Below are positions 13,305 to 61,356 of a stretch of DNA of 64,000 nucleotides, piece after piece. The stretch lies in NCBI GenBank assembly GCA_031401035.1, contig JANNRA010000112.1, positions 2,628-66,627 on the forward strand. The letters are read 5' to 3'. The notes under the pieces were generated by a model, which was not told where the DNA came from, searched no databases, and saw only the letters and a list, made by a program, of their open reading frames with translations. The stretch's first letter is position 1. Each line of letters starts with the position of its first letter. This DNA is from a bacterium (lineage in GTDB: Bacteria; Desulfobacterota; Binatia; HRBIN30; CADEER01). The translations under genes and the position numbers were made by a program.

Positions 13305-13453
13305 CACGCCTACCCCCGTGAAACGTTGTATCGGGGCGCAACCGCTAAGGAAAGGCGGCAGGCGCTCAGCGGCCGAAATCGCCGCCCTCCAGTCGCCGGC
13401 GGCTGCAAATCGGCGCTGGAGCAGGGCGTCATGCTGTGCCACCCTGGCGCGCC

Positions 13454-25072: not shown

Positions 25073-25103
25073 CCATTCGGAGCGGGCGGGCCGCCCGCGC
25101 TCC
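25017..25103. repeat. palindromic MITE-like repeat, family A, copy 2; contains the pbpC start codon
   Basis: Arms GGGAGCGCGGGCGGCCCGCCCGCA and GGAGCGGGCGGGCCGCCCGCGCTCC. The centre matches the reverse complement of the copy 1 centre. Confidence 0.75.
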
Positions 25104-25125
25104 AGGATTCGCGGCTCCAAGCTCC

Positions 25126-28100
25126 TCACGGCGCCACCTCAACGGCCTTGTTCGGGCTCTCGCCGAACATCTCCGGCGCGTAGAGGGCCTCGGCGCGCGT
25201 CGGCGGCAGGTCGAAGCGACCGCTCTGGTTCAAGCGCACATCGTACTCGACGCTCGTCCGCCCCTTGGGCAGGAACTGGAAGTAACCGCGGTAGGCGTCG
25301 AAACGGCGCTCGACGAAGTCCGGCGCTGCGACGTCGCTGCTGCCGCCGTTGGCGAGTTGGCTGTCGCGCGCCAGGCCAGTTCCGAGGTGCGAGGCGCCGG
25401 GGGGGATGGGATCGTCGAGCACCACCCAGGTCATGTCGCTCTGCGCCTCGACGTCGACGCGCACGCGCAGCCGGTCGCCGCGGCTCAGCCGGCCGACCTG
25501 GTGCGGATCGAGCGGCGTCACCGTCTTGCTGATGCGATAGCCGCTCGACAGCGGCGCACCGAGGGGAATCGCCGCGCGCGAGGTGACGGTGATCCACGGC
25601 GCGCCGGCGCCGCGCTGCTCGACCGTCAGCGTCGCCGGCGCCGCCGGCCAGGCGAAGCGAGCCGGGCCGCCCGGGGTCGGGGCCCACGCGAGTTCCTCGC
25701 TCGCGGTGCCGAGGCGCAGCGCCGTCACACCGCTGACCGGCGTCGCCTCGAACGCCGCGGCGAAGCGGCGCAGGGCCAGCACGCCCCAGGCATTGGCCAA
25801 CGTCGTGTCCCAGTGGCCGCGCCGTTGGCGCCCGAGGGCGCCGTGCAGCAGGCGTGCGGCGTCGTCCTTCCACAGGCCGAACTCGACGGTATGCAGCAGC
25901 AGGCGCACGGCGTTCTGGTCGGCCGAGGCCATCAACCACCACAGCCCGTCGCCGGCCTCGTCGGAGAAGCCCATCGTCGTGCCCTGCAGGTTCAGGCGGG
26001 CGCGGACGATCTGCTCCACCGCCGCCAGGCGCGCCGCGCGGTCGGGCAGCGTCGGCAGGCGCTGCAGGATGCTCCACCAGTCGAGCACCGCCGAGGTCGG
26101 CCACAGGTTGGGCTCGACGGAGATGCTGCCGAGCATGGCGGGATCGCCGGCGCCGAGTCGCGTCAGGGCGTCCAGGGCGGCGAGCTTACGCAGCGTCAGA
26201 TCGGGCGCGCCCAGGGGCGACTCGCGACGGATGCTGCCCTCGACGAAACCGCGCAGGCCGGCGATGAGCCGGTCGCGCGTCGCGGCGGGGATCTCCCAGC
26301 CGGCCGCCGCGGTGATGGAGACGACGTAGGCGGTGAGGACTTCGCTGCCGTGGCTGAGGGTCGGAAAGAACTTCAGCAGGCCGTCGCCGTCGAGGTACGA
26401 GGGCAGGGCGGCGGCGAGCGTCGTCCAGCCCGCCTGGTCGTCGAGGCCGACGCGGATCGAGGTCTGCTGCTCGAGGCATGTGTATGGGTAGCGGCGCAGG
26501 TAGTCGGCGACACCGCCGGCCGTACCGGCGAGCGAGGCGGCAGCAGCGACGACCAGCCCGCCGCGGCTCGGGAAGGCGTCGGCGGGGCGCGCCACCGGTA
26601 TGCGCAGCGGCTGGTCGGCGCGCAGCAGCGTCGCTTGCAGTGTGCGCACCGGTACCGCCTCGCGCACCTGCTGGGTGACGGCGAGGCGGTCGGCGACGCC
26701 GCCGGCGACGGCCTGCACGGTGTAGCGCAGCTGGTCGCCGTCGGCCGGGACGATGACCGGCCACTCGACGACGCGCGATTCACCCGGCGCGAGCGTCAGC
26801 GCCTGCGGCGCCAAAACCTGTTGCGGCGGCGTCTCCCCTGGAGGGCGGCGCCCCGTCGGCGCCTGTTGGATGGAGGCCGCCCCACCCGATGCAACAGGCG
26901 CCGACGGAGCGGCGCCCTCCAGGGACCCGGGTGCGGCGTCGGTTGCGGGCGATTCCACCGTCAGCGACACCTGCACCTCGAGCGGCCGATCGGTGGTGTT
27001 GCGCAGCGTGAACTGGGCCGGGAAGCGGTCGCCGTGGCGGACCAGCGGCGGCAGGCCGCTGAGCAGCATCAGTTCCTGCGTCGTGCGGATCTCGGTGGCG
27101 CCGCTGCCGAAGCGGCCGAGGCCGGCGGTGGCGACGGCGACGATGCGGAAGGCGGTGAGCGAGTCGTTGAGCGGCACCTCGACCGTGGCATGCCCCTGCG
27201 CATCGAGCGGCACGCGACCGCTCCACAGCAGCAGCGTGTCGAACAACTCGCGCGTCGCCTGCCGGCCGCCGCCGCCGCCTGCCGGCAGCGCCTTGCGGCC
27301 GTAATGGCGTTTGCCGATCACCTCGAGCTGCGCGGTGGCGGTGCGGACATCGTAACCGCGCCGCCCCATCATCGCCTCGAGCAGGTCCCAGCTGGGGTTG
27401 GGCGCCAATTCGAGCAGGCCCTCGTCGACCGCCACCAGCGCCACCTCGCTGCCCGGCGGCGGCGGGGCGCCGTCGCCGTCGCGCACCGCGACGCGCACCA
27501 CGGCGGTGTCGCGGACGCGATAGGTCGGCCGGTCGGCCTGCACGTCGACGCTGAGGGCGTGCGCGCGCCAGCCGACGCGGATCTCGGCGAGGCCGAGCTT
27601 GAAAGCCGGCTTGCCGAGGTCGACCATCGCCGTCGGCTGCGTGTCGGCGACGCGCCCGCGCACCGCCAGCACCGAGATGAATGTATTGGGCGCGTACGGC
27701 CCCAGCACCGGCACCTCGACGCGCGGCTCGCCGCCGCCGATCTGCAGCACGCGCGCCTCGGCGATGCCCTCGCGCTCCACCGTCACCAGCGCCGTGGCGC
27801 GCTGGAAGGGCATGCGCACCTGCAGGCGCGCCGTCTCGCCCGGGGCGTATTCGCGCTTCTCGGGCAGCACATCCATGCGGTCGGCGGCGTCGACGGCGAA
27901 GCCGCCCGGGTCGTCGCCGTCGACGTAGACGCTGCTGTGCGCCGCGGCGCCGCGGCCGGCGTCGTCGCGCACGCGCACCTGCAGGATGATCTCGCCGTCG
28001 GCCGGCGCTGCGGCGCGGCAGGCGAACAGGCCCTGCGCGTCCGTGGCGCCGGCGCAGACGCGCCCCAGCGGCGTCGTCTCTTCGACGTGCTCGTAGCCGT

Positions 28101-30903
28101 AGAAGCCGCCGACGAGGCGCTTGCGGTGCGAGTAGTAGCGGTGCCGGAAGGCGTCGACCTCCACCGCCACATCGGCCACCGGCCGGCCGCGCGTGTCGAG
28201 CACGGCGACCTTGGCGTCGAGGCCGTCGCGCTGCCCGGCCCAGTGTTCGGCGGCGATGCCGGGCAGCAGCGCCGCCGGCCACAACGGCGTCGTCGCCGCG
28301 GCGGTCTGTACCTCGCCGTTGGGGTCGCGGTACTCGATCTCGGCGACCAGTTCGCGCGGCGTCTGCACCGCCGGCAGGCCGCCGATCTCGGCCCGCGCCG
28401 TGCCGGCGGCGTCGAGCGTCAGCGTCTGCGTGCTCAGCACGGCGGTCGACTCGGCGCTGTCCGACGCCTGCTCCTCCGACTGGCGCTGGCGCACGACGCC
28501 TTCGCGCACGGCCCCGTTGGCGAAAGTGAACGACTCGAAGGCCGCGTTGCGCGGCGCCGCGCGCTCGCGCACCTGGGCGCGCAGCACCACCGGCAGCTCG
28601 CCGGCGGCGCCGCCGGCGAGATAGCGGACGGCGAGGTCGACCGGCGCGGAGGGGGCGGCGACCAGCGGCTCGGCCGGCAGTTGCACCGTCGCCTTCATCA
28701 GCGGCACGCGGAACTGCTCGACGCGGAAGCTGCCGGCGGTGACCTCGCGGCCGGCGGCGTTGGCCATGGCGATCTCGTACTGGCCGAGCTTGGCGCCGGG
28801 CGGGATCGGCCAGTCCTGGGTGGCGAGGCCGTCGCCGTCCCAGCTGAGCGGGAGGTCGTAGGTCTCGCTGCTGCCGAGGTGGCGCACGATCGCCTTCACC
28901 GGCCGCGCCTCGCCCTCGACCGCGGCGAAGCCGGCCAGCGTCTGGGCGCGCAGGACGTGCTTCATGTGCACCGTGTCGCCGGCGCGGAAGAGGGCGCGGT
29001 CGAGGATGGTGTGCGCCAGCACCGGCGCGTCGTCGCGCTCGGCGGGCAGATTGAAGCGCCACGCTTCGAGGCCGCGCCCCCAGGACGAGTGGACGAAGCC
29101 GAGGTCGCCGCTGGTTTCGGCGGTGACCAGCAGGCCGCCGTCGAGGCCGGTCAGCGCCGCGGCGGAGTAGTGGTCGCGGTAGTCGATGCCGGTGAAGTCC
29201 TTGTAGCGGTCGCCGTCGGGACAGTACTTCGCCGCGCCCGGCGCCGGCAGGCCGGTGAAGCGCGCCAGGCCCTGCGCGTCGGTGACGCCGCTGGCGAGCA
29301 CCGCGCCGCTGCAGTCCTGCACCGCGACGCGCGCGCCGGCAACCGGCGCCGCCGCGTCGAGCGTCGTCACCCAGGCCAGCGCGTTCTCGCGCGCCCACTT
29401 GAAGTGAACCGCCAGGTTGGTGACCAGGGCACCGCCCGGCACGAACAGCGGCTTGTCCTCGCCGAGCAGCGCGGCACCGAGGCGCGGGCTGCTGAGTTCG
29501 ACGAGATAGAGGCCGGGCCGGTCGAACGGGATGCCGACCACCTGCATCGTCTCCGGCCCGTCGGGCTGCGGCAGCGTGAAGCTGCGCGACGCGGTGCCGG
29601 CGGGCAGGTCGGCGAACATCGAGCGGTCGCGCCGCGCCGCCGCCAGGCGGTGCAGCCAGGGCAGCACGTCCTCGGCACGCTCGACGCGTGCGACGCTGCC
29701 GCCGAGGCGGGCGTACAGGTCCCGCACTGTTGCCGCCCAGCCGTCGGGGCGCTCGCGCGTCGCCCGCACCTCCTGGCCGCGCAGGTCGGGCTCGAGGTTG
29801 CGGATGGTCACCGGCAGGGCCGGGTCGGCCTCGGCCTCGAGCAGGCCGAAGCGAGCGGCGAACCTGGCCAGCGGCGGGTAGGGGGCGGTCTGCACCGTCG
29901 TCGGCGTGTCGGCGAGGGCGCGACCGGCGTCGTCGCGCAGATCGCTGGGCAGGGCGAGGCGCAGGGTGGTCGAGGCGGGGAAGGGCGGCGCGAACTCGAC
30001 GGCCGAGACGAAGTCGCTCGGCGTGTCCGCGGCGATCGGATCGCGGCTGGTGCCCTCGTCGCCGACCAGGCGCACCTGCCGCGCGGTCTCCCACGCCACC
30101 GGGGCGCTGAAGCGCAGCGCGATCGGCGTCAGCGGCGTGCAGTCGGCCTTGGCGTTCTCGCGCTCGCAGGTCACCTCGGCGGTGAAGCGCGGGCGGGTCT
30201 GGTAGGACAGCACCTGGTCGGCGGCGGTGGCGATGCCGGACGGGCTGGCGATGCCGGCGCCCCACACCAGGCGCACCGCGGCGGCGTCGGGGAAGGTCTG
30301 CCGCGCCGCCAGCAGCACGAACGGCGGCGTCGGCTTCATCCAATAGGGCAGGCCGGCGACGACCGCCTCGCGCTCGGGGCCGTCGAGGAGGCGGACGCCG
30401 ACGCGTTCGCTCAGTCCCGCCACCTCGAAACCGGCGCGGGCGAGGATCGAGTCCGGCGTCGCCTCGCCGTCGAGTTGCAGGACGAAGACCTGCTGCGCGT
30501 CGATGCGGTCGCTACCGTCGCCCGGCACCGCCGCGGTGATCGCCGGTCCGCCGGTGGAGAAAGCGAAGCGCGCCGGCGTCACCGCCGCGCCGGCGCGGCT
30601 CTTCAGGTCGGCGCGCAGCGCGAAGGTGCAGCGGGTGCCGGCGGGCAGGTCGCGCTCGAAGTCGTAGGCCCAGGTGCGTACGTCGACCCAGCGCGCCGTG
30701 CCCGGCACCGCGCACTCGACGGCGAACGGCGCCGCGACGTCGCGCAGGTCGCCGAAGGGCACCATCGGCGCCGAGAACACCGCCGTCGCCTGGCGCACCT
30801 GCTTCACCTCGCCCTGCGGCGCGAAGCGCTCCACCGTCACCGCCGCCGGCGCCGCCGTCGCGGCCCCCACCATCATCAGGATCACCGCCGCCAGTTGCCG
30901 CAT
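25126..30903 (-). CDS. bacterial alpha-2-macroglobulin (YfhM-like), secreted, about 1926 aa
   Basis: Start at MRQLAAVILMMVGAATAAPA (signal peptide; no lipobox Cys). It carries the thioester motif CLEQ (RYPYTCLEQQTS) and has MG-domain architecture. Confidence 0.9.
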   Translation of the reverse strand: MRQLAAVILMMVGAATAAPAAVTVERFAPQGEVKQVRQATAVFSAPMVPFGDLRDVAAPFAVECAVPGTARWVDVRTWAYDFERDLPAGTRCTFALRADLKSRAGAAVTPARFAFSTGGPAITAAVPGDGSDRIDAQQVFVLQLDGEATPDSILARAGFEVAGLSERVGVRLLDGPEREAVVAGLPYWMKPTPPFVLLAARQTFPDAAAVRLVWGAGIASPSGIATAADQVLSYQTRPRFTAEVTCERENAKADCTPLTPIALRFSAPVAWETARQVRLVGDEGTSRDPIAADTPSDFVSAVEFAPPFPASTTLRLALPSDLRDDAGRALADTPTTVQTAPYPPLARFAARFGLLEAEADPALPVTIRNLEPDLRGQEVRATRERPDGWAATVRDLYARLGGSVARVERAEDVLPWLHRLAAARRDRSMFADLPAGTASRSFTLPQPDGPETMQVVGIPFDRPGLYLVELSSPRLGAALLGEDKPLFVPGGALVTNLAVHFKWARENALAWVTTLDAAAPVAGARVAVQDCSGAVLASGVTDAQGLARFTGLPAPGAAKYCPDGDRYKDFTGIDYRDHYSAAALTGLDGGLLVTAETSGDLGFVHSSWGRGLEAWRFNLPAERDDAPVLAHTILDRALFRAGDTVHMKHVLRAQTLAGFAAVEGEARPVKAIVRHLGSSETYDLPLSWDGDGLATQDWPIPPGAKLGQYEIAMANAAGREVTAGSFRVEQFRVPLMKATVQLPAEPLVAAPSAPVDLAVRYLAGGAAGELPVVLRAQVRERAAPRNAAFESFTFANGAVREGVVRQRQSEEQASDSAESTAVLSTQTLTLDAAGTARAEIGGLPAVQTPRELVAEIEYRDPNGEVQTAAATTPLWPAALLPGIAAEHWAGQRDGLDAKVAVLDTRGRPVADVAVEVDAFRHRYYSHRKRLVGGFYGYEHVEETTPLGRVCAGATDAQGLFACRAAAPADGEIILQVRVRDDAGRGAAAHSSVYVDGDDPGGFAVDAADRMDVLPEKREYAPGETARLQVRMPFQRATALVTVEREGIAEARVLQIGGGEPRVEVPVLGPYAPNTFISVLAVRGRVADTQPTAMVDLGKPAFKLGLAEIRVGWRAHALSVDVQADRPTYRVRDTAVVRVAVRDGDGAPPPPGSEVALVAVDEGLLELAPNPSWDLLEAMMGRRGYDVRTATAQLEVIGKRHYGRKALPAGGGGGRQATRELFDTLLLWSGRVPLDAQGHATVEVPLNDSLTAFRIVAVATAGLGRFGSGATEIRTTQELMLLSGLPPLVRHGDRFPAQFTLRNTTDRPLEVQVSLTVESPATDAAPGSLEGAAPSAPVASGGAASIQQAPTGRRPPGETPPQQVLAPQALTLAPGESRVVEWPVIVPADGDQLRYTVQAVAGGVADRLAVTQQVREAVPVRTLQATLLRADQPLRIPVARPADAFPSRGGLVVAAAASLAGTAGGVADYLRRYPYTCLEQQTSIRVGLDDQAGWTTLAAALPSYLDGDGLLKFFPTLSHGSEVLTAYVVSITAAAGWEIPAATRDRLIAGLRGFVEGSIRRESPLGAPDLTLRKLAALDALTRLGAGDPAMLGSISVEPNLWPTSAVLDWWSILQRLPTLPDRAARLAAVEQIVRARLNLQGTTMGFSDEAGDGLWWLMASADQNAVRLLLHTVEFGLWKDDAARLLHGALGRQRRGHWDTTLANAWGVLALRRFAAAFEATPVSGVTALRLGTASEELAWAPTPGGPARFAWPAAPATLTVEQRGAGAPWITVTSRAAIPLGAPLSSGYRISKTVTPLDPHQVGRLSRGDRLRVRVDVEAQSDMTWVVLDDPIPPGASHLGTGLARDSQLANGGSSDVAAPDFVERRFDAYRGYFQFLPKGRTSVEYDVRLNQSGRFDLPPTRAEALYAPEMFGESPNKAVEVAP
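26840..26920. repeat. family B palindromic repeat inserted in-frame inside the alpha-2-macroglobulin coding sequence
   Basis: GGAGGGCGGCGCCCCGTCGGCGCCTGTTG...CAACAGGCGCCGACGGAGCGGCGCCCTCC. It is translated as ..LEGAAPSAPVASGGAASIQQAPTGRRPPGE.. with no frame break. Confidence 0.7.
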
Positions 30904-31072
30904 GGGGACGTTTGTCCACTGCCGCCGGTGAATCCGCAAGCTCCTCGCGGGTGGAATCCGCAAGCGGCTCGCCCGCGAAGGCAGGGACCTGGAGACGGAG
31001 GCTAACGCTGGGCCGATTGGGATCCGCGCACGGCCGCGCAATCCGAATTACAGCGGGAATTCATACTGCCGC

Positions 31073-34000
31073 TTGCCATTCATTACGAGTTGCAGGCTAA
31101 AAGGATCCGTGCGCGTTTCGTGGCCGCTCGTCGCGGGCCTTGCGCTGGTTGCGGCGGTGCCGGCCGTAGCGCAGTCGCCCGCCTACTTGGTCAAGGACAT
31201 CAACCGTGCGTCGGTCGATCCCTTCACGTCGGGGGCCTACCCCCTGGGCTTCGTCCTTCTCGGCGGGCGTGCCTACTTCACTGCCGGCGATGCCGCGCAC
31301 GGTCGCGAGTTGTGGCGCTCTGACGGTACGCCTGGCGGCACCACCTTGGTAGCTGACCTAAATCCGGGCCAGGATGACAGCTCGCCGCGCGACCTCACCG
31401 TCATCGATGGGGCGCTGTGGTTCCGCGCCTGGGATGGCCGTCGGGGTTGCGGCGTGTGGCGTAGCGACGGCAGTCCCGCCGGGACGCGGCTGGTGGCGAT
31501 CGTGCACGGTCGCTTCTTCGAGTGCGCCGAGGACGCACGCGAGGGCGGGCAGCCGACCGGATTCGCCGGAATCGCCGGCGCGGTGTTGTTTGCAGCCCGC
31601 ATCGGCGATGGCGGCAGCGAATTGTGGCGCACTGACGGCACGGAGGCCGGCACTGAGCCGTTGCTCGACATCAACCCGGGCGACGCTCCCAGTATGCCTC
31701 GCGGCTTGGTGACCCATGGCGGGGCGGTGTACTTTGCCGCCGACGACGGCGTCCGGGGCACGGAGCTGTGGCGCAGCGACGGCACGGCAGCGGGGACGCG
31801 CCTGGTGCGCGATATCGATCCCGGTGCGCCATCGGGCCTCCAGCCGGCGTCCCTCGCCGACCCGTACTTCTTTCCTGTGCGGCTGTATGTCGTGAGCGGC
31901 GGCCTCGTGTTCGCGGCCTTCGACAGCACACATGGCGTGGAGCTGTGGCGCAGCGATGGCAGCGAAGCAGGGACGTCGATGCTGCTCGACAGCGAACCAG
32001 ACTCGCTTCTCAACGGGCTGCGATTCATGGGTCGAATCGTCCCACCCTTCGTGGCGCTCGATGCGGGTTCCGTCGCCTTCTTCAGCGTCACCGCCACCGA
32101 GGCGCCGGCCCGCCTTCTCGTCTGGCGCAGCGATGGCACCGCGCTGGGCACCACGGCGATGGCCGCGGTAGACTATATGAGTCCGGGGTACATCGGCTCC
32201 CCGCCAGGGGATGCCGCGCGCCTCGGAACAGGACTGGTTTTCAGGGTCGCCGAGCAGGGCGCTACTTCCCTCTGGCGCGTCGATGGTGCGGGCGGCGAGC
32301 CGCAGCGCGTCACCGTGCCCACGCTTCGCGTCGGTGCCATGACGGTGCTGGGCCAGCAGGTGCTGTTCTTCGCCAGCACCGGAACCTCCCGGTGTGGTCT
32401 GTGGCGCAGCGACGGCACACAGGCCGGAACGATTCTGCTGCGCGACGTCGCACCCACTCGCGGCGAGTGTCCGGAGGACTTCGACATCGAGCTGCCCGGA
32501 CACCGCACCGCGGTGGTTGATGGGCGGGTGCTGCTGGCGGCGGACGAGGACGAGCAGGGGGTGGAACTGTTCGCCAGCGATGGCAGCGTCTCGGGAACGG
32601 GTCTGCTGGGGGACCTCAACGACACTCGTCTGCGCACGGGTGGCGTTGGTCTGGAGCTACATGGGTCCTTGGACGATCGTCTCTTCTTCTCGACCTTCGG
32701 CGGCGCGGCATCGGACCTGGATACCGTAGGCGCGCCTACCGGACTCTGGGCTACCGATGGCACGCAAGCGGGAACGGTGCTCCTCGGCGAGATGACTCCG
32801 TGGTGGGGCGGCGCGGTCGGCGATTACTTCGTCCTCGCCGGCCCAGATGGCGTTGGATCTGCGATCTGGGCGAGTGATGGTACTCCAGCCGGAACGCGGG
32901 TGATCGCCTCTGGCGTCGGAGTGAGTCGCGCCCCGATCACCACGTCCAAGGGGCTCTTCCTCCAGGTCAACAGCCCCAGCGAGTCCGAGCGCCAACTCTG
33001 GCGCAGCGACGGAACGGCCTCGGGGACGAAGCGCGTCATCGGGTTCCCCTTGGAGGGCTACTCGACGTCCTTTGGCGCCTGGGCCGCCTTTGGCCGTGGC
33101 CTGGTCTTCATCATCAATAATCGGGACGGAGGCGAGTTGTGGCATACCGACGGAACGATCGGCGGCACCGATCGCATCGAGGTGTTTCCCAACGCCGTCG
33201 CTGACGCGATGATGGAAGTCGACGGGACACTCTTCCTCCACGTTCTTCCCTTTGGCGCTGCCAGGGGCAGCCAACTGTGGCGAACTGATGCAACGGTGGC
33301 CGGCGCAGTGCTCATCCAAGATTTCGCGACCTCGCCGACGCCGGCTCGCGTGTTCTGGCTCGCCGCAGGACCTGGCGCTCTCTTCTTCTCCGCTGGAGAC
33401 GTGCTGTCCGGACTCGAACTCTGGCGTTCCGACGGAACCGCCCCTGGCACGCGGCGCGTGCGCGATGTCGCGCCGGGTCCGACTGGTGCGCTGGTGGATC
33501 CGGCTGGAAGGATTCTCCAGCAGACCGGCGTGGCCCGCGGCGCGCTGGTGTTCATCGCCGACGACGGGGCGCACGGTCCAGAGCCGTGGCGAAGCGACGG
33601 CACGGAGGCGGGGACGACGCTGCTGCGCGATTTCGACCCGCGCCTGCCCGTGGCGCTGGCTAACGGCTTGGCGCTGTCGCTGGCGGACGTCGGCGACCGA
33701 GTCCTGTTGGCACCCCTTGACCGCGACGCCGGCGTCGAGCCGTGGATCACCGACGGCACGGCCCCGGGTACGCGCCGCCTGGCTGACATCGCACCAGGGG
33801 TCCGCTCGGGGTTGAAGAGCGGGGCGCCCTTCGCCTCCACGCGCACCCATGTATTCTTCGGCGCCGATGACGGGAGCAGTGGCTACGAGCTGTGGGCCAT
33901 GCCGCGCGGCGCCTTCGAGGGCGGCGGCTGCGCCGGCGATTGCAACGGCGACGGACGCGTCGCCATCGACGAACTGGTACGTGGGGTTGGGATCGCACTC

Positions 34001-34108
34001 GGCACTACCGCCCTCGACACCTGCCTCGGGTTAGACGCCGACGTGGATGAGACCGTGTCGATCGCCGAGCTGGTCGGCTCCGTTGCCGACGCGCTCGGCG
34101 GGTGCTGA
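31073..34108 (+). CDS. secreted ELWxxDGT-repeat protein with a dockerin-like C-terminal domain
   Basis: There are at least 12 repeats of the (E/G)LWRSDGT(x)AGT pattern. The signal peptide is VRVSWPLVAGLALVAAVPAVAQ; an alternative GTG start lies at 31109. The C-terminus reads CAGDCNGDGRVAIDELVRGVGIALG...DADVDETVSIAELVGSVADALGGC. Confidence 0.8.
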   Translation: MPFITSCRLKGSVRVSWPLVAGLALVAAVPAVAQSPAYLVKDINRASVDPFTSGAYPLGFVLLGGRAYFTAGDAAHGRELWRSDGTPGGTTLVADLNPGQDDSSPRDLTVIDGALWFRAWDGRRGCGVWRSDGSPAGTRLVAIVHGRFFECAEDAREGGQPTGFAGIAGAVLFAARIGDGGSELWRTDGTEAGTEPLLDINPGDAPSMPRGLVTHGGAVYFAADDGVRGTELWRSDGTAAGTRLVRDIDPGAPSGLQPASLADPYFFPVRLYVVSGGLVFAAFDSTHGVELWRSDGSEAGTSMLLDSEPDSLLNGLRFMGRIVPPFVALDAGSVAFFSVTATEAPARLLVWRSDGTALGTTAMAAVDYMSPGYIGSPPGDAARLGTGLVFRVAEQGATSLWRVDGAGGEPQRVTVPTLRVGAMTVLGQQVLFFASTGTSRCGLWRSDGTQAGTILLRDVAPTRGECPEDFDIELPGHRTAVVDGRVLLAADEDEQGVELFASDGSVSGTGLLGDLNDTRLRTGGVGLELHGSLDDRLFFSTFGGAASDLDTVGAPTGLWATDGTQAGTVLLGEMTPWWGGAVGDYFVLAGPDGVGSAIWASDGTPAGTRVIASGVGVSRAPITTSKGLFLQVNSPSESERQLWRSDGTASGTKRVIGFPLEGYSTSFGAWAAFGRGLVFIINNRDGGELWHTDGTIGGTDRIEVFPNAVADAMMEVDGTLFLHVLPFGAARGSQLWRTDATVAGAVLIQDFATSPTPARVFWLAAGPGALFFSAGDVLSGLELWRSDGTAPGTRRVRDVAPGPTGALVDPAGRILQQTGVARGALVFIADDGAHGPEPWRSDGTEAGTTLLRDFDPRLPVALANGLALSLADVGDRVLLAPLDRDAGVEPWITDGTAPGTRRLADIAPGVRSGLKSGAPFASTRTHVFFGADDGSSGYELWAMPRGAFEGGGCAGDCNGDGRVAIDELVRGVGIALGTTALDTCLGLDADVDETVSIAELVGSVADALGGC

Positions 34109-35825: not shown

Positions 35826-36566
35826 GTGGCTGCCACTGCACGGGAACGACTCGCCGCCCTGGACCTGCCGGGGACGGTGCGCTTCGGCGCGCCGACCGCC
35901 GACGCGGTGCGCCGCCTGCCGGTGGGCATCGCGGCGCTCGACGCGCTGCTCGGCGGCGGCCTGCCGCGCGGCTACCTGAGCGAGCTGGTCGGCGGCCGCG
36001 CCAGCGGCCGCACGGCGGTGCTGTACGCGCTGCTGGCGGCGACGACGCGCGCCGGCGAGGTGGCGGCGGTGGTCGACCTGCCCGACGCGCTCGATCCCGC
36101 CAGCCTGGCGCGCGCCGGGGTGCAGCTCGAGCGCGTGCTGTGGGTACGCCCGCCGGCGCCGCGCGCCGCCCTGCAATGCGCCGAGTTGATCCTCGCCGCC
36201 GGCGGCTTCGCGCTCGTCGCGCTCGACCTCGACGGGCCGCCGGCGCGCCTGTCGCGCGCCGCCTGGCCGCGCCTCGCCCAGGCGGCGCGGCGCGCCGGCG
36301 CGGTCTGTGTCGTCAGCGGCGCGCAGCGCCGCGCCGAGGGCGCCGCGGCGCTGGCGCTGCAGCTCGACGCGCGCCGCGTGCACTGGAGCGCGCACCTGCT
36401 CGACGGCCTCGCCGCCACCGCGACGCTGACGCGCAGCCGCTTCGGCGCGGCGGGGCAGGTGGCGACGATCGTCGTCGGCGAGGAACTATCGACGTTCAAC
36501 GCGCACCTCTCCGTCGCCCGCAAGCAGATGCAGCTCCCCTCTCCCGCCGGGAGAGGGTCAGGGTGA
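35826..36566 (+). CDS. imuA: SOS mutagenesis protein ImuA (inactive RecA-fold)
   Basis: GTG start. A RecA-like Walker-A region (LSELVGGRASGRTAV) is present. It is the first gene of the imuA-imuB-dnaE2 cassette. Its last codons and stop are encoded by a GGGAGAGGGTCAGGGTGAGGGG hairpin repeat. Confidence 0.75.
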   Translation: MAATARERLAALDLPGTVRFGAPTADAVRRLPVGIAALDALLGGGLPRGYLSELVGGRASGRTAVLYALLAATTRAGEVAAVVDLPDALDPASLARAGVQLERVLWVRPPAPRAALQCAELILAAGGFALVALDLDGPPARLSRAAWPRLAQAARRAGAVCVVSGAQRRAEGAAALALQLDARRVHWSAHLLDGLAATATLTRSRFGAAGQVATIVVGEELSTFNAHLSVARKQMQLPSPAGRGSG

Positions 36567-36635
36567 GGGGAGCAGACCTCCATGCCGCCGATCGTTTCCC
36601 GTGTCTCCGTGCCTCCGTGGTGAAAGGCATTTTCT

Positions 36636-38111
36636 GTGCGCCTCGCCTGTCTGTACGTGCCGGTGTTCCCGCTCGCCGCCTGGCTGCGCGCCGAGCCGGA
36701 GTTGCGCGGTACGCCGCTGGCCGTCGCCGACGGCGCCTCGCCGCGGGCGCGGCTGGTCGCCTGCTCGCCGGAGGCGGGGCGGCGCGGCGTCGCGCCGGGG
36801 CTGACGGCGGCGCAGGCGGCGGCGATCGCCGGCGACCTGGTGTTGCGGCCGGCCTCGCCCGACGCCGAGCGCGCCGCGCACGCGGCGCTGGCCGACGTGG
36901 CGTACTCGTTCTCACCGCGCGTCGAGGACGGCGCTCCGGGCACGGTGTACTTCGACGCCGACGGCCTGCACGAGCTCTACCCGAGCGAGCCGGCGCTGGC
37001 GCAGGCGGCGCTGCGCCGCGCCGCCGCGCTCGGGCTCGATGCCGCGATCGGCATCGCCGGCAGCAAGATCGCCGCCGAGCTGGCGGCGCGCGATGGCGGC
37101 GGCTGCGCGGTGGTGCCGCCGCACGAGGAGTGGCGGCTGCTGGCACCGCTGTCGCTCGATCGGCTGCAGCCCGCTCCGGCGCTGCGCGAGACGCTGAGCC
37201 GCTGGGGTATCCGCACGCTCGGCGATCTCGCCGCGCTGCCGGCGAGCGGGTTGGCGGCGCGGCTCGGTCCGGAGGCGGCGGCGCTGGCGCGACGGGCGCG
37301 CGGCGAGGACGCGCACCCGTTGGCGCCGCGGCCGCTGCCGCTGCAGTTCGAGGAGGCGGCGGCGCTCGACTGGGGTGTCGACGCGCTGGAGCCGTTCCTG
37401 TTCGTTGTGCGCGGCCTGCTCGACCGCCTGACGGCGCGTCTCGAGGTGCGCGGCCTGGTGTGCGGCGACCTGCGCCTGTCGCTCGGCCTGGTCGACCGCG
37501 GCCGCGACGAGCGCACGGTGACGGTGGCGGCGCCGAGCACGGCGGTGAAGGCGCTGCTGACGCTGGTGCGCGTCCATCTCGAGACCCACCCGCCGCGCGC
37601 CGCCGTCGAGCACCTGCGCCTCGCCGCCGTACCCGAGCGTCTGCGCGCCGCGCAACTCGACCTTTTCCGCCCCGCCGGCCCGGCGCCGGCGCAGCTCGCC
37701 GCGACGCTGGCGCGCCTCGGCGCCCTGTGCGGCGCGGTGCCGGTCGGCATGCCGGTGGTGGCCGACTCGCACCGCCCCGACGCCTACGGCGTGGCACCGT
37801 TCGCGGCGCCGCCGGCGGCGGCGGCAGGAGCGGAGTCGCGGCCCGTGCCGCTCGCCATCCGCGCCGTGCGTCCGCCGCGTCGACTGGAGGTCTTCTGCCA
37901 GCGCGATCGTCCCGACTTCCTGCGCGCCGCCGGCTGCCAGGGCCGCGTCGTCTCTCTCGCCGGCCCCTGGCGCCTCGCCGGCGAGTGGTGGCGCCCCGAG
38001 GCGGTGCTGCAGCGCGACTACTACGACGCCCAGCTCAGCGACGGCGGCGTCTACCGGTTCTACTTCGACCGCGCCGCGCAGCAGTGGTTCCTCGATGGTG
38101 AGTACGACTGA
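36636..38111 (+). CDS. imuB: Y-family-polymerase-like ImuB
   Basis: GTG start with MRLACLYVPVFPLAAW (the typical ImuB N-terminus). The protein is 491 aa and the gene precedes dnaE2. Confidence 0.8.
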   Translation: MRLACLYVPVFPLAAWLRAEPELRGTPLAVADGASPRARLVACSPEAGRRGVAPGLTAAQAAAIAGDLVLRPASPDAERAAHAALADVAYSFSPRVEDGAPGTVYFDADGLHELYPSEPALAQAALRRAAALGLDAAIGIAGSKIAAELAARDGGGCAVVPPHEEWRLLAPLSLDRLQPAPALRETLSRWGIRTLGDLAALPASGLAARLGPEAAALARRARGEDAHPLAPRPLPLQFEEAAALDWGVDALEPFLFVVRGLLDRLTARLEVRGLVCGDLRLSLGLVDRGRDERTVTVAAPSTAVKALLTLVRVHLETHPPRAAVEHLRLAAVPERLRAAQLDLFRPAGPAPAQLAATLARLGALCGAVPVGMPVVADSHRPDAYGVAPFAAPPAAAAGAESRPVPLAIRAVRPPRRLEVFCQRDRPDFLRAAGCQGRVVSLAGPWRLAGEWWRPEAVLQRDYYDAQLSDGGVYRFYFDRAAQQWFLDGEYD

Positions 38112-38140
38112 CTTTCACACGGAGAAACGGAGGAACGGAG
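38112..38140. repeat. left inverted repeat flanking the GxxExxY gene
   Basis: CTTTCACACGGAGAAACGGAGGAACGGAG. Its reverse complement matches 38519-38548 with one mismatch and one indel. Confidence 0.75.
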
Positions 38141-38554
38141 ATGATGGACAGATTGGCGACGGAGGGAATCATTGCGGCGGCGATCGAGGTCCATCGGGCA
38201 CTGGGACCAGGATTGCTGGAGAGCATCTACGAAGAGTGTCTGGCGGAAGAGCTGTCGTTGCGAGGCATGGCGTACGAGCGACAGCGCGGGGTTCCCCTGG
38301 AGTACAAGGGGCGTCGCCTCGGAATCGATCTGCGTATCGATCTGCTCGTCGGTGACCGGGTGGTCGTCGAGTTGAAGGCGGTCGAGAAAATCCTGCCCAT
38401 CCACGCCGCCCAGGTCGTGACGTATCTCCGGCTGACCAACAAACCGTATGGATTGCTGATCAACTTCCACGTCCCGATGCTGAAAGAAGGCATTCGCCGC
38501 TATCTCAATCCCGTCCTTCTCCGTTCCTCCGTTGCTCCGTGTGAAAAGTCCTGA
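38141..38554 (+). CDS. GxxExxY family protein (PD-(D/E)XK_3), inserted between imuB and dnaE2
   Basis: MMDRLATEGI..GPGLLESIYEECL contains the GxxExxY motif. The 137-aa gene is lower in GC than its surroundings and is flanked by 30-bp inverted repeats. Confidence 0.8.
   Translation: MMDRLATEGIIAAAIEVHRALGPGLLESIYEECLAEELSLRGMAYERQRGVPLEYKGRRLGIDLRIDLLVGDRVVVELKAVEKILPIHAAQVVTYLRLTNKPYGLLINFHVPMLKEGIRRYLNPVLLRSSVAPCEKS
38519..38548. repeat. right inverted repeat flanking the GxxExxY gene; overlaps the dnaE2 start
   Basis: CTCCGTTCCTCCGTTGCTCCGTGTGAAAAG. A related motif also occurs at 36593-36627 immediately upstream of imuB. Confidence 0.75.
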
Positions 38555-41500
38555 CGACTACGTCGAGCTGCGCACGCGCAGTGCCTTCTCCTTCCTCGCC
38601 GGGGCGTCGTTGCCGGAGGATCTGGTGGCGCGGGCGGCGGCGCTCGATCACGGCGTCCTCGCCATGGGCGATCGCGACGGGGTGTACGGCGCGCCGCGCT
38701 TTCATCAGGCGGCGGTGAAGGCCGGCGTGCGCGGCATCGTCGGTTGCGAGCTGACGACGGTGGACGGGGCGCTGTACGTGCTGGTCGCCGAGCGGGTGGG
38801 ATATCGCAACCTCTGCCGGCTGCTCAGCGACGCCAAGCTGCGCGCGGCGAAGGGCGCGGCGGTGGTCGAGTGGAGCGATCTCGACGGGCGCAGCGACGGA
38901 CTGATCTGCCTGGCGCGGCAGCCGGCGGGGCTGGCGCGCCTGCAGCGCCTGTTCCCGGGGCGGCTCTACCTCGAGCTGCAGCGCCACCTCGACGCGGACG
39001 AGGAGCGGCACAATCGCGTCCTCGCCGCCGCCGCCGAACACCACCGCCTGCCGCTGGTGGCCACCAACGACGTGCGCCACGCGGCGCCGGACGGGCGGCC
39101 GCTGCTCGACGTGCTGACCTGCCTGCGCGAACACACGACGCTCGACGCCGCCGGCCGCCGCCTGCTCGCCAACGCCGAGCGCCATCTCAAGCCGGCGCGC
39201 GAGATGGCGGCGCTGTTCCGCGACCAGCCGGCGGCGCTGGCCAACACGCGCCGCATCGCCGAGCAGTGCGCCTTCGGGCTCGCCGACCTCGGCTACCGCT
39301 TCCCCGACTATCCGCTGTCGCCCGGCGAGACGGCCGACGGCCACCTGCGGGCGCTCACCGAGGCCGGCGCGCGCGGGCGCTACGGTGCGCTGACGCTGCG
39401 CGTGCGGCGCCAGCTCGAGCACGAGCTGGCGGTGATCGCGCAGCTCGGGCTGGCCGGCTACTTCCTCATCGTCTGGGACATCGTGCGCTACTGCCGCGAG
39501 GCCGGGATCCTGGCGCAGGGGCGCGGCTCGGCGGCCAACTCGGCGGTCTGCTACGCGCTCGGCATCACCGCCGTCGACCCGATCGGCATGGAACTGCTCT
39601 TCGAGCGCTTCCTGTCGCCGGAGCGCGGCGAGTGGCCGGACATCGACATCGACCTGCCGAGCGGCGAGCGGCGCGAGCGGGTCATCCAGTACGTCTACCA
39701 GCGCTACGGCCCGCGCGGCGCGGCGATGACCGCCAACGTCATCACCTACCGCACGCGCAGCGCCGTGCGCGAGGTCGGCAAGGCGCTGGGGTTCGCCGAG
39801 GCGCAGGTGGCGCGGTTGTCGAAGCTGCTGCACCGCTTCGAGTTCCGCGACGACCTCGACCAGCTGGCGGAGCAGTTGCGGGCCGGCGGCGTCGACCCCG
39901 CCGCGCCGCGCGTGCGCCTGTTGGTCGATCTCGTCGCGCGCATCCAGAACCTGCCGCGCCATCTCGGCCAGCACTCCGGCGGCATGGTCATCGCGGCCGG
40001 GCGGCTCGACGAGGTGGTGCCGCTCGAGCCGGCGGCGATGCCGGGGCGGGTGGTGGTGCAGTGGGACAAGGACGACTGCGCCGATCTCGGCATCATCAAG
40101 GTCGACCTGCTCGGCCTCGGCATGATGGCGGTGCTGGAGGACACCCTACCGCTGATCCGCGTGCACGAGGGGGTCGAGGTGGACCTCGCCCGCCTGCCGG
40201 CCGACGACCCGGCGACCTACGCCATGCTGCGGCGCGCCGATACGATCGGCGTCTTCCAGGTCGAGAGCCGGGCGCAGATGGCGACGCTGCCGCGCCTGCG
40301 GCCGGAGCGCTTCTACGACCTGGTCGTCGAGGTGGCGCTGATCCGCCCCGGCCCGATCGTCGGGCAGATGGTGCACCCGTACCTGAACCGCCGCCGCGGC
40401 CGCGAGGCGGTGACGTACGCGCATCCCGACCTCGAGCCGATCCTGGCGCGCACGCTGGGCGTGCCGCTCTTCCAGGAGCAGCTGCTGCGCATGGCGATGG
40501 CGGTCGCCGACTTCAGCGGCGGCGAGGCCGAAGAGCTGCGCCGCGCCATGGGCTTCAAGCGCTCCACCGAGCGCATGCGCGAGATCGAGGCGCGCCTGGT
40601 CCGCGGCATGGCGGCACGCGGCATCGCCGCGGCGGCGCAGGACGGCATCATCACCAGCATCACCTCGTTCGCCCTCTACGGCTTCCCCGAGTCGCACGCC
40701 GCCAGCTTCGCGCTGCTCGCCTACGCCTCGGCGTACCTGCGCCGCCACCACCTCGCCGCCTTCACCTGCGCCATGCTCAACAACTGGCCGCTCGGCTTCT
40801 ACCACCCCGCCACCCTGGTGAAGGACGCCCAACGCCACGGCCTGCACATCCTGCCCGTCGACGTGACGATCTCACCCTGGAACTGCACCCTCGAACCGGC
40901 AGCCATGCAGGCGGCCGCCCAGAGTCCCCCAGCCGAAGGAAGGTGTGCAGATGCCCAGAGTCCCCCAGCCGGGACCGCGGGCGTCTCGCCCGCAGCCGAC
41001 GCCGGTTGGAGCAACCACCTCTCCCTCCGCCTCGGCCTGCGCTACGTCTCCGCCCTGCGCGCCGACACCGCCGCGCGCATCGAGTCCGCCCGCGCCGCCG
41101 CCCCCTTCGCCGACCTCACCGATCTCACCCACCGTGCCGCGCTGCGCGACGACGAACTACAGACCCTCGCCCACGCCGGCGCCTTCGCCCCCTTCGGCCT
41201 CACCCGCCGCGACGCCATGTGGCAGGCCGCCGCCGTCAGCCGCGATCCGCTCTTCGCCGGCGCCCGCGTCCGCGCGACCGCCGCGCCGCTCCCCGCCGCG
41301 CCGTTGCCCGAGATGACCACCGTCGACCGCACCCTCGCCGACTACACAACCCTCGGCCTCACCGCCGGCCCGCATCTGATGAAGTACCTGCGCCCGAGTC
41401 TCGACGCCCAGGGCGTGCTGCGCAGCCGCGATCTGGTGCGGGAGAAAAACGGCGCCTGGGTGAAGCTCGCCGGGCTGGTCATCGTCCGCCAGCGCCCCGG

Positions 41501-41807
41501 CACCGCCAAGGGCTTCTGCTTCCTCACCCTCGAGGACGAGACCGGCATCGGCAACGCCGTCGTCACGCCAGATCTGTTCCAGCGCCACCGCGCCGTCATC
41601 CACACCGCCGCGCTGCTGCTCGTCGAGGGCCCGCTGCAGGTCGTCGAGGGCGTCATCCATCTGCGCGCCCGCCGCTTCACGCCGCTGGCGCTGCCCGAAC
41701 AGGTCGTCACCCAGGCCGGACACGGCTACCGCATGCGCGTCACGCCGCAGGAGGAACCGCCGCCGGGGCTGCCGCCGAGGCTGCCGAAGTCGCACGATTT
41801 CCGCTGA
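38532..41807 (+). CDS. dnaE2: error-prone DNA polymerase DnaE2 (ImuC)
   Basis: The 1091-aa protein has an N-terminal PHP domain ([10 protein letters not shown]), the Pol III alpha core and an OB fold. The start is TTG at 38532 or GTG at 38541, with no obvious Shine-Dalgarno. Confidence 0.9.
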
Positions 41808-41824
41808 CCACACACGGAGGGTTC

Positions 41825-42992
<1,168 letters not shown>

Positions 42993-42997
<5 letters not shown>

Positions 42998-59867: not shown

Positions 59868-60215
59868 ATGCGCTTACGTCCTGCGTCATTCCTGCCCTGT
59901 CTCATGGCCGCCCTCGCGCTGGTTGCGGCCGCGCCAATGCATGCAGGCGACGTGGCAGGTGACGGGTCGATGCGCATGTTCCGCGATCCGCAGCGCGGCG
60001 TGCTCGCCGCTCCGACGGATGCAGGGCTTGGCGACGCGGCGCCCGCGGTCGAGGCTGCCGCGGGCGCGGAGCTGCGCGAAGAAGCGGTGCGCGGCCCGGC
60101 TGGGGGCACGAAGGTGAACCTGCGCGGTCGTATGCGGGCGGCGGTGTCGCGCCACGCCGGGGTCGGCGGCGCGACGCACGCGTGTGTCCAGGAGCCCGGG
60201 CAGGCGCATGACTGA
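59868..60215 (+). CDS. small secreted hypothetical protein
   Basis: Signal peptide MRLRPASFLPCLMAALALVAAAPMHA. Its 3' end overlaps the start of the downstream HExxH protein. Confidence 0.4.
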   Translation: MRLRPASFLPCLMAALALVAAAPMHAGDVAGDGSMRMFRDPQRGVLAAPTDAGLGDAAPAVEAAAGAELREEAVRGPAGGTKVNLRGRMRAAVSRHAGVGGATHACVQEPGQAHD

Positions 60216-61356
60216 GGCGCGACGGTGGCAGGTGGTCGCGGCCCTGGCGGTGACGGCGGTGCTGGCGGCAGCGCAGCCGGCGGGCGCGGCGGTAGTGCGG
60301 GTGATGACGCGTGACAGCCCCGGCGAGGGCTTCAACGACGCGACGCCGGTCGCGGCGGTGGGCGGCAACAGCGGCACGACACTCGGGGCGCAGCGGCGCG
60401 TGGCGTTCGAGTACGCGGCGCAGATCTGGGCCAGCCGTCTGGTCAGCCCGGTCGAGATCCGCGTCTCCGCCACGTTCGACGCGCTGGCCTGCAGCGCCGG
60501 GTCGACGACCCTCGGCGTGGCCGGGCCGGTGAGCGTCTTTCGCGATTTCTCCGGCGCACCGCGTGCCAATACCTTCTATCCGTCGGCCCTCGCAGACCGT
60601 CTGGCGGGAATGGATATCGAGCCGTCGGAGGACGACATCGACGCGACCTTCAACAGCGCCTTTGGCAGCACCTGTCCGTTTCCCGCCGGCTGGTACTATG
60701 GGCTCGATGGCGCGGCGGCGGACGGGGACTCGGATTTCGTCACCGTCGCCCTGCACGAACTCGGGCACGGCTTCGGGTTCCTGACGCTGATGGACGTCGA
60801 GTCGGGCGCGCTCTTCGAGGGGCGAGACGACGTGTTCCTGCTCCAGTTGATCGACGCGCGCAATGGACTGACGCTCGATGCGATGACCAACGCGCAGCGT
60901 CGCTCGGCGCTCGAGGCGACCGGGTCGCTGCGCTTCATCGGCCCGCAGGTGACGGCGTCGAGCGGCGGACTGGTCAGCGGCGTCGACACGCTTGGTCGGG
61001 TGGAGATGTACGCGCCGGCGTTCGCGCAGAACGGCTCGACGGCGAGCCATTGGAGCAACGAGGTGGCGCCGCTGGAACTGATGGCGCCGTTCTTCGAGGC
61101 GCCGCTGCACGACGTTGGCATCGCTGCCGCGGCGCTGGGTGACCTCGGCTGGGAGCTGGCGGGTGCGCCGGGGTGCCCCGGCGACTGCGACGGCGGCGGA
61201 TCGGTGACCATCGACGAACTGGTCGTGGCGGTCTGCATCGCGTTGGGGGAGGCCGAGGTCGCCGCCTGCACTGCGGTCGACGCCGAGGGCGACGGCAGGG
61301 TCTCGATCGCCGACCTGGTCGCCGCCGTCAGCGGCGCACTGGCCGGCTGTCGGTAG
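60208..61356 (+). CDS. secreted HExxH zinc-metalloprotease-like protein with a dockerin-like C-terminal domain
   Basis: Signal peptide ..VVAALAVTAVLAAAQPAGA. It has the motif HELGHGFGF. The C-terminus CPGDCDGGGSVTIDELVVAVCIALG...DAEGDGRVSIADLVAAVSGALAGC parallels the C-terminus of the ELWxxDGT protein. Confidence 0.7.
   Translation: MTEARRWQVVAALAVTAVLAAAQPAGAAVVRVMTRDSPGEGFNDATPVAAVGGNSGTTLGAQRRVAFEYAAQIWASRLVSPVEIRVSATFDALACSAGSTTLGVAGPVSVFRDFSGAPRANTFYPSALADRLAGMDIEPSEDDIDATFNSAFGSTCPFPAGWYYGLDGAAADGDSDFVTVALHELGHGFGFLTLMDVESGALFEGRDDVFLLQLIDARNGLTLDAMTNAQRRSALEATGSLRFIGPQVTASSGGLVSGVDTLGRVEMYAPAFAQNGSTASHWSNEVAPLELMAPFFEAPLHDVGIAAAALGDLGWELAGAPGCPGDCDGGGSVTIDELVVAVCIALGEAEVAACTAVDAEGDGRVSIADLVAAVSGALAGCR

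Follow-up and report, generated by a model that had tools for sequence, protein, structure and literature searches.

What does a short, cysteine-framed module do at the C-terminus of two secreted proteins that are otherwise unrelated? The question is raised by a 64-kb stretch of DNA (71.6% G+C, hereafter the window) of contig JANNRA010000112.1, affiliated to the Binatia, in which an ELWxxDGT-repeat protein (carrier 1) and an HExxH metalloprotease-like protein (carrier 2) each end in a copy of the same 60-residue module (Table 1). An initial annotation, made by reading the letters of the window, had likened this module to dockerin repeats and had presented it as a possible targeting, anchoring or sorting device. 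The module is probably a divergent, disulfide-clasped dockerin of a non-cellulosomal system found mostly in Candidatus Binatia metagenome-assembled genomes (MAGs). We hold with fair, if incomplete, confidence that it is one half of a cohesin-dockerin system that would tether assorted secreted proteins, a reading drawn from sequence comparisons and from a predicted structure.

Both open reading frames (ORFs) and both C-terminal sequences are real and were correctly quoted in the initial annotation. The exact limits of the module (Table 1) depart slightly from those first proposed, the start at 33900 being off the reading frame by one base. Between the two copies, an ungapped alignment extends over 54 aa (52% identity, E 2e-11), and each matches a family hidden Markov model (HMM) built from 46 sequences at E about 1e-24 to 1e-25; a six-frame motif scan of the window found no third copy. 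Carrier 1 matches the ELWxxDGT model TIGR04534 with 17 repeats (E 1e-163), and carrier 2, which has an HELGH motif at 60754-60768, matches NF038122 “metallo_LGF” at E 2e-15 with 57.6 bits, under the cutoff of 80. Judged by eye, the N-termini of carrier 1 (VRVSWPLVAGLALVAAVPAVA/QSP) and carrier 2 (MTEARRWQVVAALAVTAVLAAAQPAGA/A) are plausible Sec signal peptides. Public gene calls (Logan, run SRR20217205) give identical products, with starts at 31109 (999 aa) and 60208 (382 aa), respectively. The carriers end in ...ALGGC (carrier 1) and ...ALAGCR (carrier 2), with no hydrophobic stretch in either.

The initial annotation had considered a lineage-specific analogue of dockerins; the module is not restricted to the two proteins of this lineage, as it belongs to a very large family. 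Recurrence of the motif in other proteins, on which that annotation had staked its proposal beforehand, was borne out by thousands of relatives. A single-sequence search with the 61-aa module against a word-indexed database returned one match, and a profile was required: built from the two copies and one metagenomic match, it retrieved 52 proteins from the same database. An exhaustive HMMER search of 1.84 billion cluster representatives with a 46-sequence profile then gave 12,299 clusters at 50% identity (E<=1e-3), and 9,359 at E<=1e-10. This profile has 150 positions, including Pro/Thr linker columns, and both counts may include linker-driven matches; the re-verification of the matches covered the best 150. 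A clean 61-column HMM finds the module again in 198/198 collected proteins. Family members are annotated in public resources as “hypothetical” or “EF-hand”. The taxonomic spread was sampled with one narrow peptide pattern, [IV][DE]ELVRGV[GSR]I, and is thereby under-represented in the 12 loci obtained, with four MAGs contributing two loci each: seven loci come from four Candidatus Binatia MAGs, two from one “Deltaproteobacteria bacterium” MAG and three from unclassified MAGs; one is on a short Terriglobales-labelled contig. The G+C content of the window and the closest relatives of its modules are in keeping with Binatia.

The consensus of the module is x-C-[AP]-G-D-C-[ND]-G-D-G-x-V-[TS]-[VI]-[DN]-E-L-[VI]-x-G-V-x-I-A-L-G-(6)-C-[P]-A-[F]-D-x-[ND]-G-D-G-x-V-[TS]-[IV]-[DN]-E-L-[VI]-x-A-V-x-x-A-L-x-G-C, the two halves of which are clear duplicates with a period of 32 residues. 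Both contain a loop D-x-[ND]-x-[DN]-G-x-V-x-x-x-E conserved at 92-98% at ligand positions of the family columns, with D1 in 97-98%, [ND]3 in 86-88%, [DNS]5 in 92-95%, G6 in 70-77% and E12 in 92-93%. Its position varies: of the occurrences in the best 150 representatives, 79 are C-terminal, 69 are internal and 60 are N-terminal, lying no more than 60 residues from the start of the protein. Two copies are present in 38 of these proteins, three in seven, four in two and five in one. It is thus an autonomous domain and not a C-terminal tag. Pro/Thr linkers often join it to its cargo, several proteins being composed of a signal peptide, the module, a Pro/Thr linker and other domains. The cargo includes M4 thermolysin, penicillin amidase, FG-GAP/VCBS, glucodextranase-B, matrixin, lactonase/YNCE propellers, PD40, Ig-like domains, CBM96, Laminin_G_3 and Kazal, and the combination of ELWxxDGT repeats with the module recurs in three protein fragments (P0003, P0004, P0020).

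The structure prediction called for by the initial annotation favoured its dockerin-like interpretation. The AlphaFold2 model of copy 2 has a predicted local distance difference test score (pLDDT) of 95.5, an earlier model derived from a 3-sequence alignment (pLDDT 61) having been discarded. In a Foldseek search of the PDB, only dockerins superpose well on this model (8x39, 5nrm, 4uyq, 2ccl, 4fl4, 2mte, 2vn6, 6kge, 2ozn), with template-modelling (TM) scores of 0.57-0.68 and root-mean-square deviations (rmsd) of 2.4-3.9 Å over 55-63 columns, whereas calmodulin-type EF-hand proteins give a TM of ~0.3 and an rmsd of ~10 Å; the fold is thus assigned from a predicted model with one search method. 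The loops occupy columns 5-16 and 37-48 of the module and the predicted helices columns 14-24 and 46-58. The first loop begins three residues into the module, leaving no entering helix before it, and the module consists of two loop-plus-helix (F-hand) segments lacking entering helices, as is characteristic of dockerins. The likeness to dockerins is therefore firmer than originally proposed, and the module would be a homologue having the predicted dockerin fold instead of a mere analogue.

The resemblance to type I dockerins (PF00404; PDB 1OHZ/2CCL, 4FL4, 2MTE, 2VN6, 5NRK) covers the length of ~60 aa, the two tandem Ca2+-loop-plus-helix repeats and the three-helix fold, as far as it is predicted. 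With those of clostridial and ruminococcal cellulosomes, the module also shares the internal pseudo-symmetry of 32-residue period and the missing entering E-helix. As with type I dockerins, it is carried by diverse secreted proteins, often through Pro/Thr linkers, and co-occurs with cohesins, including multi-cohesin scaffoldin-like proteins. Substantial differences are also found. The hosts are uncultured lineages of Gram-negative type, mostly Candidatus Binatia MAGs, and not cellulolytic Firmicutes, the cargo consists of proteases, amidases, propeller, FG-GAP and Ig-like proteins instead of glycoside hydrolases, and the module is frequently N-terminal or internal. Moreover, Asp is usual at position 12 of the loop in type I dockerins, whereas the module mainly has Glu at this position.

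The most distinctive difference lies in the Cys residues. In dockerins, an “intramolecular clasp” is formed between one of the residues -1 to -3, numbered from the conserved Gly preceding the first Asp, and a C-terminal residue, and its disruption lowers both dockerin stability and cohesin binding (PMC3821032). The N- and C-termini of the module are likewise placed for a clasp. The first invariant Cys (C1) is at position -2 (C-[AP]-G0-D1) and the fourth (C4) is the final residue, so that a C1-C4 disulfide would probably constitute a covalent clasp, contrasting with the non-covalent clasps of classical dockerins (PMC3821032). The two remaining invariant Cys, at position 2 of the first loop and in the linker (C6-C33 in column numbering), form a probable second pair, which would bring the module to two disulfides. 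Cys is found at columns 2, 6, 33 and 60 in 240/242 complete modules, which makes their co-loss uninformative within this top-scoring sample. Variants provide some indications on the pairing. In P0030 and P0049, C1 and C4 are both missing and C2 and C3 are retained. Additional Cys at columns 20 and 36 (28 and 30 occurrences) are found together in 26 modules, and a Cys at column 3 (n=5) is always accompanied by one at column 38, this 3/38 pair being the pseudo-symmetry mate of the putative C6-C33 bond. Disulfides would be compatible with the export of both carriers. In copy 2, a fifth Cys is present (61234-61236, column 22, in VAVCIALG) at a position where Cys occurs in 2/276 family modules; it would stay unpaired if the four invariant Cys make two disulfides.

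A dockerin calls for a cohesin, and the initial annotation had suggested looking for such a partner. None was found in the window; cohesins were identified in the same proteins, gene clusters and MAG lineages as relatives of the module. Pfam Cohesin was found in 2/40 carriers. A CipA cohesin sequence was used solely to choose a candidate protein, P0186, and supports no cohesin claim. Local iterative searches from P0186 uncovered one to three Cys-rich domains of ~150 aa in 26 module-bearing proteins or ORFs (~26/198 carriers), including ORFs of three Candidatus Binatia loci (L002, L004 and L006). The profile of this domain (A5) matches ~20 distinct solved cohesins of the PDB, mostly from end to end (E 5.6e-10 to 2e-3), and 13/27 of its members match Pfam Cohesin PF00963 (best E 1.2e-9) and no rival family, which identifies it at the sequence level as a cohesin. 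These lineage cohesins are Cys-rich, like the modules. One of the carriers of both domains, P0055 (NCBI MBI3785777.1, “hypothetical protein [Deltaproteobacteria bacterium]”), is a scaffoldin-like protein of 1843 aa with three cohesins and three modules in the order Doc-Coh-Coh-Doc-Coh-Doc. An alternation of several cohesins with several modules is also seen in the giant proteins P0053 (1378 aa) and P0054 (1554 aa), as well as in P0070 and P0092; such proteins could self-polymerise or fold back on themselves if the specificities match.

Some of the cohesins bear a cell-surface anchor. In the word-indexed database, the cohesin profile retrieved 7 proteins, among them cohesin-only proteins. P0204 is composed of a signal peptide, a cohesin, a Pro/Thr linker and a MYXO-CTERM tail (...GGCHVAPAGTSSLPVWLLAPLGLALLRRRARR) which matches TIGR03901 with 26.9 bits (cutoff 20, E 4.8e-6) and has the characteristic layout of a Cys motif, a transmembrane helix and an Arg-rich end. 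P0201 has a tail of the same type, and P0202 consists of a lipobox (LSGC), a Pro/Thr linker and a cohesin. No tail of MYXO-CTERM type was found on the module carriers. Myxosortase cleaves MYXO-CTERM proteins, which are exposed at the cell surface (PMC11980579). The sequence of P0204 suggests that its cohesin is lipid-anchored and displayed on the outside of a diderm cell. The likeness to the MYXO-CTERM/myxosortase system therefore concerns the presumed partner cohesin and not the module, which is not such a signal in the window proteins. MYXO-CTERM was described for Myxococcota, and the literature searched contained no case of it on a cohesin.

Cohesins and modules are also linked at the gene level. 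Five contigs were reached through a cohesin protein, and on each of them (5/5) separate genes with the module lie next to the cohesin genes. On L015 (60% GC), an FG-GAP protein with a module, a 316-aa protein with a module and a cohesin-MYXO-CTERM protein are encoded consecutively on one strand, and the same gene order is found on L016 (68% GC). On L017, a frameshifted contig, cohesins adjoin a module. On L020 (72.8% GC), a module protein is encoded directly upstream of P0186, which has the structure Coh-Coh-module. L022 encodes a protein with two cohesins, another with the structure Doc-Coh-Coh-Doc and a PD40/Tricorn-like protein in which the module is internal. Cohesin carriers and dockerin-only carriers are also found within the same MAG (L005 with L006, and L004 with L009). 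Module carriers occur alone in housekeeping contexts as well, on L018, on L019 and in the window itself. The cohesin proteins P0186 and P0095 originate from runs other than SRR20217205.

Two side observations concern these clusters. In the L015 and L016 trios, the product of the middle gene (8898-9848 and 8972-9646, respectively, both on the + strand) resembles a cohesin in its N-terminal part when judged by eye (LTVGRVSGAVGGVVTVPVEF...); it has no match to Pfam Cohesin or to the lineage cohesin HMM, and may represent a second, more divergent cohesin type. A ParE/RelB toxin-antitoxin pair (8423-8873, - strand) lies within the cohesin/dockerin gene cluster of L022.

Put together, these data suggest the following scheme. 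Both carriers would leave the cytoplasm through the Sec pathway. Once in the oxidising environment of the periplasm or outside the cell, the module would take up two Ca2+ and be locked by two disulfides. Once folded, it would plug into a cohesin domain of another protein, cohesins being carried in related organisms by proteins with a MYXO-CTERM or a lipoprotein signal, or by scaffoldin-like proteins with multiple cohesins and dockerins. The propeller-repeat protein and the metalloprotease would in this way be tethered to the surface or built into extracellular complexes, in a cellulosome-like arrangement with non-cellulolytic cargo.

Several observations weigh against this interpretation. At the sequence level, copy 2 reaches 16.4 bits (E 0.011) with Pfam Dockerin_1 for a gathering score of 22.9, copy 1 has no match to this model and, unlike type I dockerins, most members of the family share with the two window copies a score below threshold. 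Among 46 members, Pfam favours the EF-hand models, with 39/46 matching EF-hand_1 (best E 3.5e-8) and 2/46 Dockerin_1. The small size of the domain keeps the Foldseek E-values weak (0.06-1). In each window copy, one of the Ca2+ loops is somewhat degenerate: position 6 of loop 2 in copy 1 is Glu where 77% of the family has Gly, and position 5 of loop 1 in copy 2 is Gly where 92% of the family modules have D, N or S; loop 2 of copy 2 also has Glu at position 3 and Asp at position 12, each a minority state in the family. The disulfide pairing is drawn from a handful of variants and not from coordinates. Finally, the lineage-specific cohesin HMM has a best E of 0.75 in the window, where no cohesin is thus recognised, no cohesin lies within 10 kb of the module carriers on the long contigs L018 and L019, and the anchored cohesins P0200-P0204 have individually no match to Pfam Cohesin, their assignment being made at the family level.

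The better matches to EF-hand models and the lack of a cohesin in the window and within 10 kb of the carriers of L018 and L019 would also fit a stand-alone extracellular EF-hand pair, which would bind Ca2+ to stabilise its carriers or to confer a Ca2+ response, and have no dedicated partner. The two loops have the canonical EF-hand form, with ligands at positions 1, 3, 5 and 12, including Glu at position 12, and Gly at position 6 in the family consensus. The pattern D-x-[DN]-x-[DN]-G-x-[VI]-x-x-x-E is found twice per module, as in calmodulin and calerythrin (EF-hand_1, EF-hand_7), and some members bear the Joint Genome Institute (JGI) label “Ca2+-binding EF-hand superfamily protein”. The window copies themselves remain below the gathering score of EF-hand_1 (25.4), with 22.2 bits for copy 2 and 16.6 for copy 1. 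When 40 longer carriers are considered, 7/40 pass Dockerin_1 (best 35.3 bits, E 1.3e-8), therefore the family grades into PF00404, and its Pfam placement is the EF-hand/dockerin region of sequence space. Within this region, the predicted fold separates the two possibilities: the four-helix packing of EF-hand pairs is absent, with no helix before loop 1, and the predicted packing fits dockerins (rmsd ~3 Å) and not EF-hand pairs. The module also differs from canonical EF-hand pairs by its extracytoplasmic location, its putative disulfides and its fusion to secreted cargo. A pure stabiliser would leave unexplained the co-occurrence with cohesins in single polypeptides and conserved gene clusters, and shuffling among many unrelated cargos on flexible Pro/Thr linkers is unexpected for a stabilising domain. 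We therefore regard an EF-hand pair of this kind as unlikely.

A dockerin fold could also serve a ligand other than a cohesin, such as an envelope polysaccharide, another module in self-association or the catalytic domain of the carrier. About 170/198 sampled carriers have no cohesin in the same protein, many genomes have dockerin-like modules and no recognisable cohesins according to the summary of Peer et al. 2009 in PMC9012536, and the alternating cohesins and modules of P0055 would fit intramolecular or self-assembly roles equally. The linkage described above argues against such a ligand: modules adjoin cohesins on all five contigs selected through a cohesin, the gene order is kept between L015 and L016 despite their differing GC contents, the cohesins of the lineage are Cys-rich like the modules, and none of the present results suggests an alternative ligand. 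This makes a non-cohesin ligand quite unlikely. The idea of a C-terminal sorting signal, read through its Cys and processed by a sortase, an exosortase or a myxosortase-like enzyme, could draw on the C-terminal position in both window proteins, on the invariant Cys, one of which is the last residue of the module, and on the existence of Cys-containing sorting signals such as MYXO-CTERM (PMC11980579), but was rejected as hardly credible and is effectively refuted by the positional data, the module being N-terminal or internal in 129/208 occurrences and present as many as five times in one protein, forming a compact domain according to its predicted structure, having neither the architecture of a motif, a transmembrane helix and a basic tail nor a match to any NCBIfam sorting-domain model, and leaving the genuine MYXO-CTERM tails to cohesin proteins, with no sortase or CPBP gene in the window. 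The broader proposal of the initial annotation, a module shared by unrelated secreted proteins, nevertheless holds and anchoring is its probable role; sorting by a C-terminal tag or by a Cys-dependent signal of sortase type does not.

The concept of a cohesin-dockerin system outside cellulosomes has precedents, and divergent dockerin is the most fitting label for the module. Such non-cellulosomal modules are established for a range of bacteria and archaea (Peer et al. 2009, according to the summary in PMC9012536). From what this summary reports, including for ANME archaea, the present family resembles them in having hosts that are not known cellulose degraders, a heterogeneous cargo, a presumed tethering function and some proteins combining a dockerin with several cohesins. 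It departs from them by a specific Cys signature that marks dockerin and cohesin alike, by the thousands of 50%-identity clusters and by the anchoring of some cohesins through MYXO-CTERM or lipoprotein signals. No link between dockerins and Binatia or Binatota was found in the literature searched. Within this literature, which did not cover the survey of Peer et al. 2009, the four-Cys frame read as a covalent clasp appears to be undescribed, as do the size of the subfamily, the Cys-rich cohesins that match the module, and the anchoring of such cohesins by MYXO-CTERM and lipoprotein signals in diderm lineages. We put forward tentatively, with slightly more doubt than conviction, that these features set apart a major branch of cohesin-dockerin systems not described before, a disulfide-clasped docking system of the Gram-negative surface in Candidatus Binatia and uncultured lineages close to them. 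Anchored cohesins of the MYXO-CTERM or lipoprotein type and scaffoldins with multiple cohesins and dockerins would there display dozens of non-cellulolytic secreted proteins (proteases, amidases, propeller and FG-GAP proteins), and the scale of the branch in sequence space would be comparable to that of the classical cellulosomal families.

Few known non-covalent protein interactions are as strong as those of cohesin-dockerin pairs, on which cellulosomes and many synthetic-biology scaffolds are built. The dockerin interpretation, if true, would add covalent disulfide clasps to these pairs in a very large, unannotated subfamily, would widen their biology past plant-cell-wall degradation into uncultured diderms using MYXO-CTERM or lipoprotein anchors, and would give a hint at how Binatia organise their exoproteome. 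It would also supply new docking pairs for engineering, possibly more stable and orthogonal. Thousands of metagenomic proteins currently labelled “hypothetical” or “EF-hand” could be re-annotated with a family-specific model.

Table 1. Positions in the window of the two carriers, their module copies, the invariant Cys codons and the predicted Ca2+ loops.
Feature	Positions	Strand	Remarks
Carrier 1, secreted ELWxxDGT-repeat (beta-propeller-like) protein	31073..34108	+	1011 aa counted from first TTG
Module copy 1, 60 aa, GCAGDCNGDGRVAIDELVRGVGIALGTTALDTCLGLDADVDETVSIAELVGSVADALGGC	33926..34105	+	aa 952-1011 of carrier 1; family HMM E 8e-26, HMM positions 1-60
Copy 1, family-invariant Cys codons (four)	33929, 33941, 34022, 34103	+	
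Copy 1, predicted Ca2+ loop 1, DCNGDGRVAIDE	33938..33973	+	canonical D-x-N-x-D-G-x-V-x-x-x-E; motif scan and family column frequencies
Copy 1, predicted Ca2+ loop 2, DADVDETVSIAE	34034..34069	+	slightly degenerate; motif scan and column frequencies
Carrier 2, secreted HExxH metalloprotease-like protein	60184..61356	+	390 aa counted from first GTG
Module copy 2, 60 aa, GCPGDCDGGGSVTIDELVVAVCIALGEAEVAACTAVDAEGDGRVSIADLVAAVSGALAGC	61171..61350	+	aa 330-389 of carrier 2; family HMM E 1.4e-26
Copy 2, invariant Cys codons	61174, 61186, 61267, 61348	+	
Copy 2, predicted Ca2+ loop 1, DCDGGGSVTIDE	61183..61218	+	motif scan and column frequencies
Copy 2, predicted Ca2+ loop 2, DAEGDGRVSIAD	61279..61314	+	family column frequencies

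The genes surrounding the carriers are those of PBP1C, a bacterial alpha-2-macroglobulin, a major facilitator superfamily (MFS) transporter, imuA-imuB-dnaE2, a carboxyltransferase, a GNAT protein, a luciferase-like oxidoreductase, an RDD protein, cbb3-oxidase accessory proteins and COX1, among others. The 64 kb contain no gene for a sortase, a CPBP protease, a myxosortase, a MYXO-CTERM protein, a type II secretion system (T2SS) or Dsb. In this setting the two carriers stand as dispersed cargo genes, and a partner, if there is one, would be encoded elsewhere in the genome.

Other features of the window were recorded along the way. The pair formed by the alpha-2-macroglobulin (1971 aa; MG2, bMG3, bait region, A2M, bMG10) and a PBP1C-type transglycosylase/transpeptidase (22943-31041, - strand) is divergent from carrier 1, and the presence of a protease inhibitor beside surface proteins may be a coincidence. 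The MFS gene that comes after carrier 1 is directly followed by an SOS-mutagenesis cassette (35826-41807, + strand) composed of imuA (RecA-like), imuB (IMS family) and dnaE2 (error-prone Pol III alpha). Carrier 2 lies in a segment of ~3.9 kb bracketed by two tRNA-Ser genes (59404-59491 and 63382-63468, anticodons CGA and GGA) and shared with the luciferase-like oxidoreductase and RDD-family genes; a small signal recognition particle (SRP) RNA (63529-63627) is found directly after the second tRNA. An ORF of 925 aa (10665-13442, - strand) has a strong coding signal, with a G+C content at third codon positions (GC3) of 0.93, and no Pfam match at E<=1e-5; HMM searches found neither the module nor a cohesin in it. 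Between 41800 and 47400, just two short ORFs pass a coding filter based on GC3 and its second-position counterpart (GC2), a long alternative ORF (38744-42997) overlaps dnaE2, and an ORF of 582 aa is present at 45201-46949.

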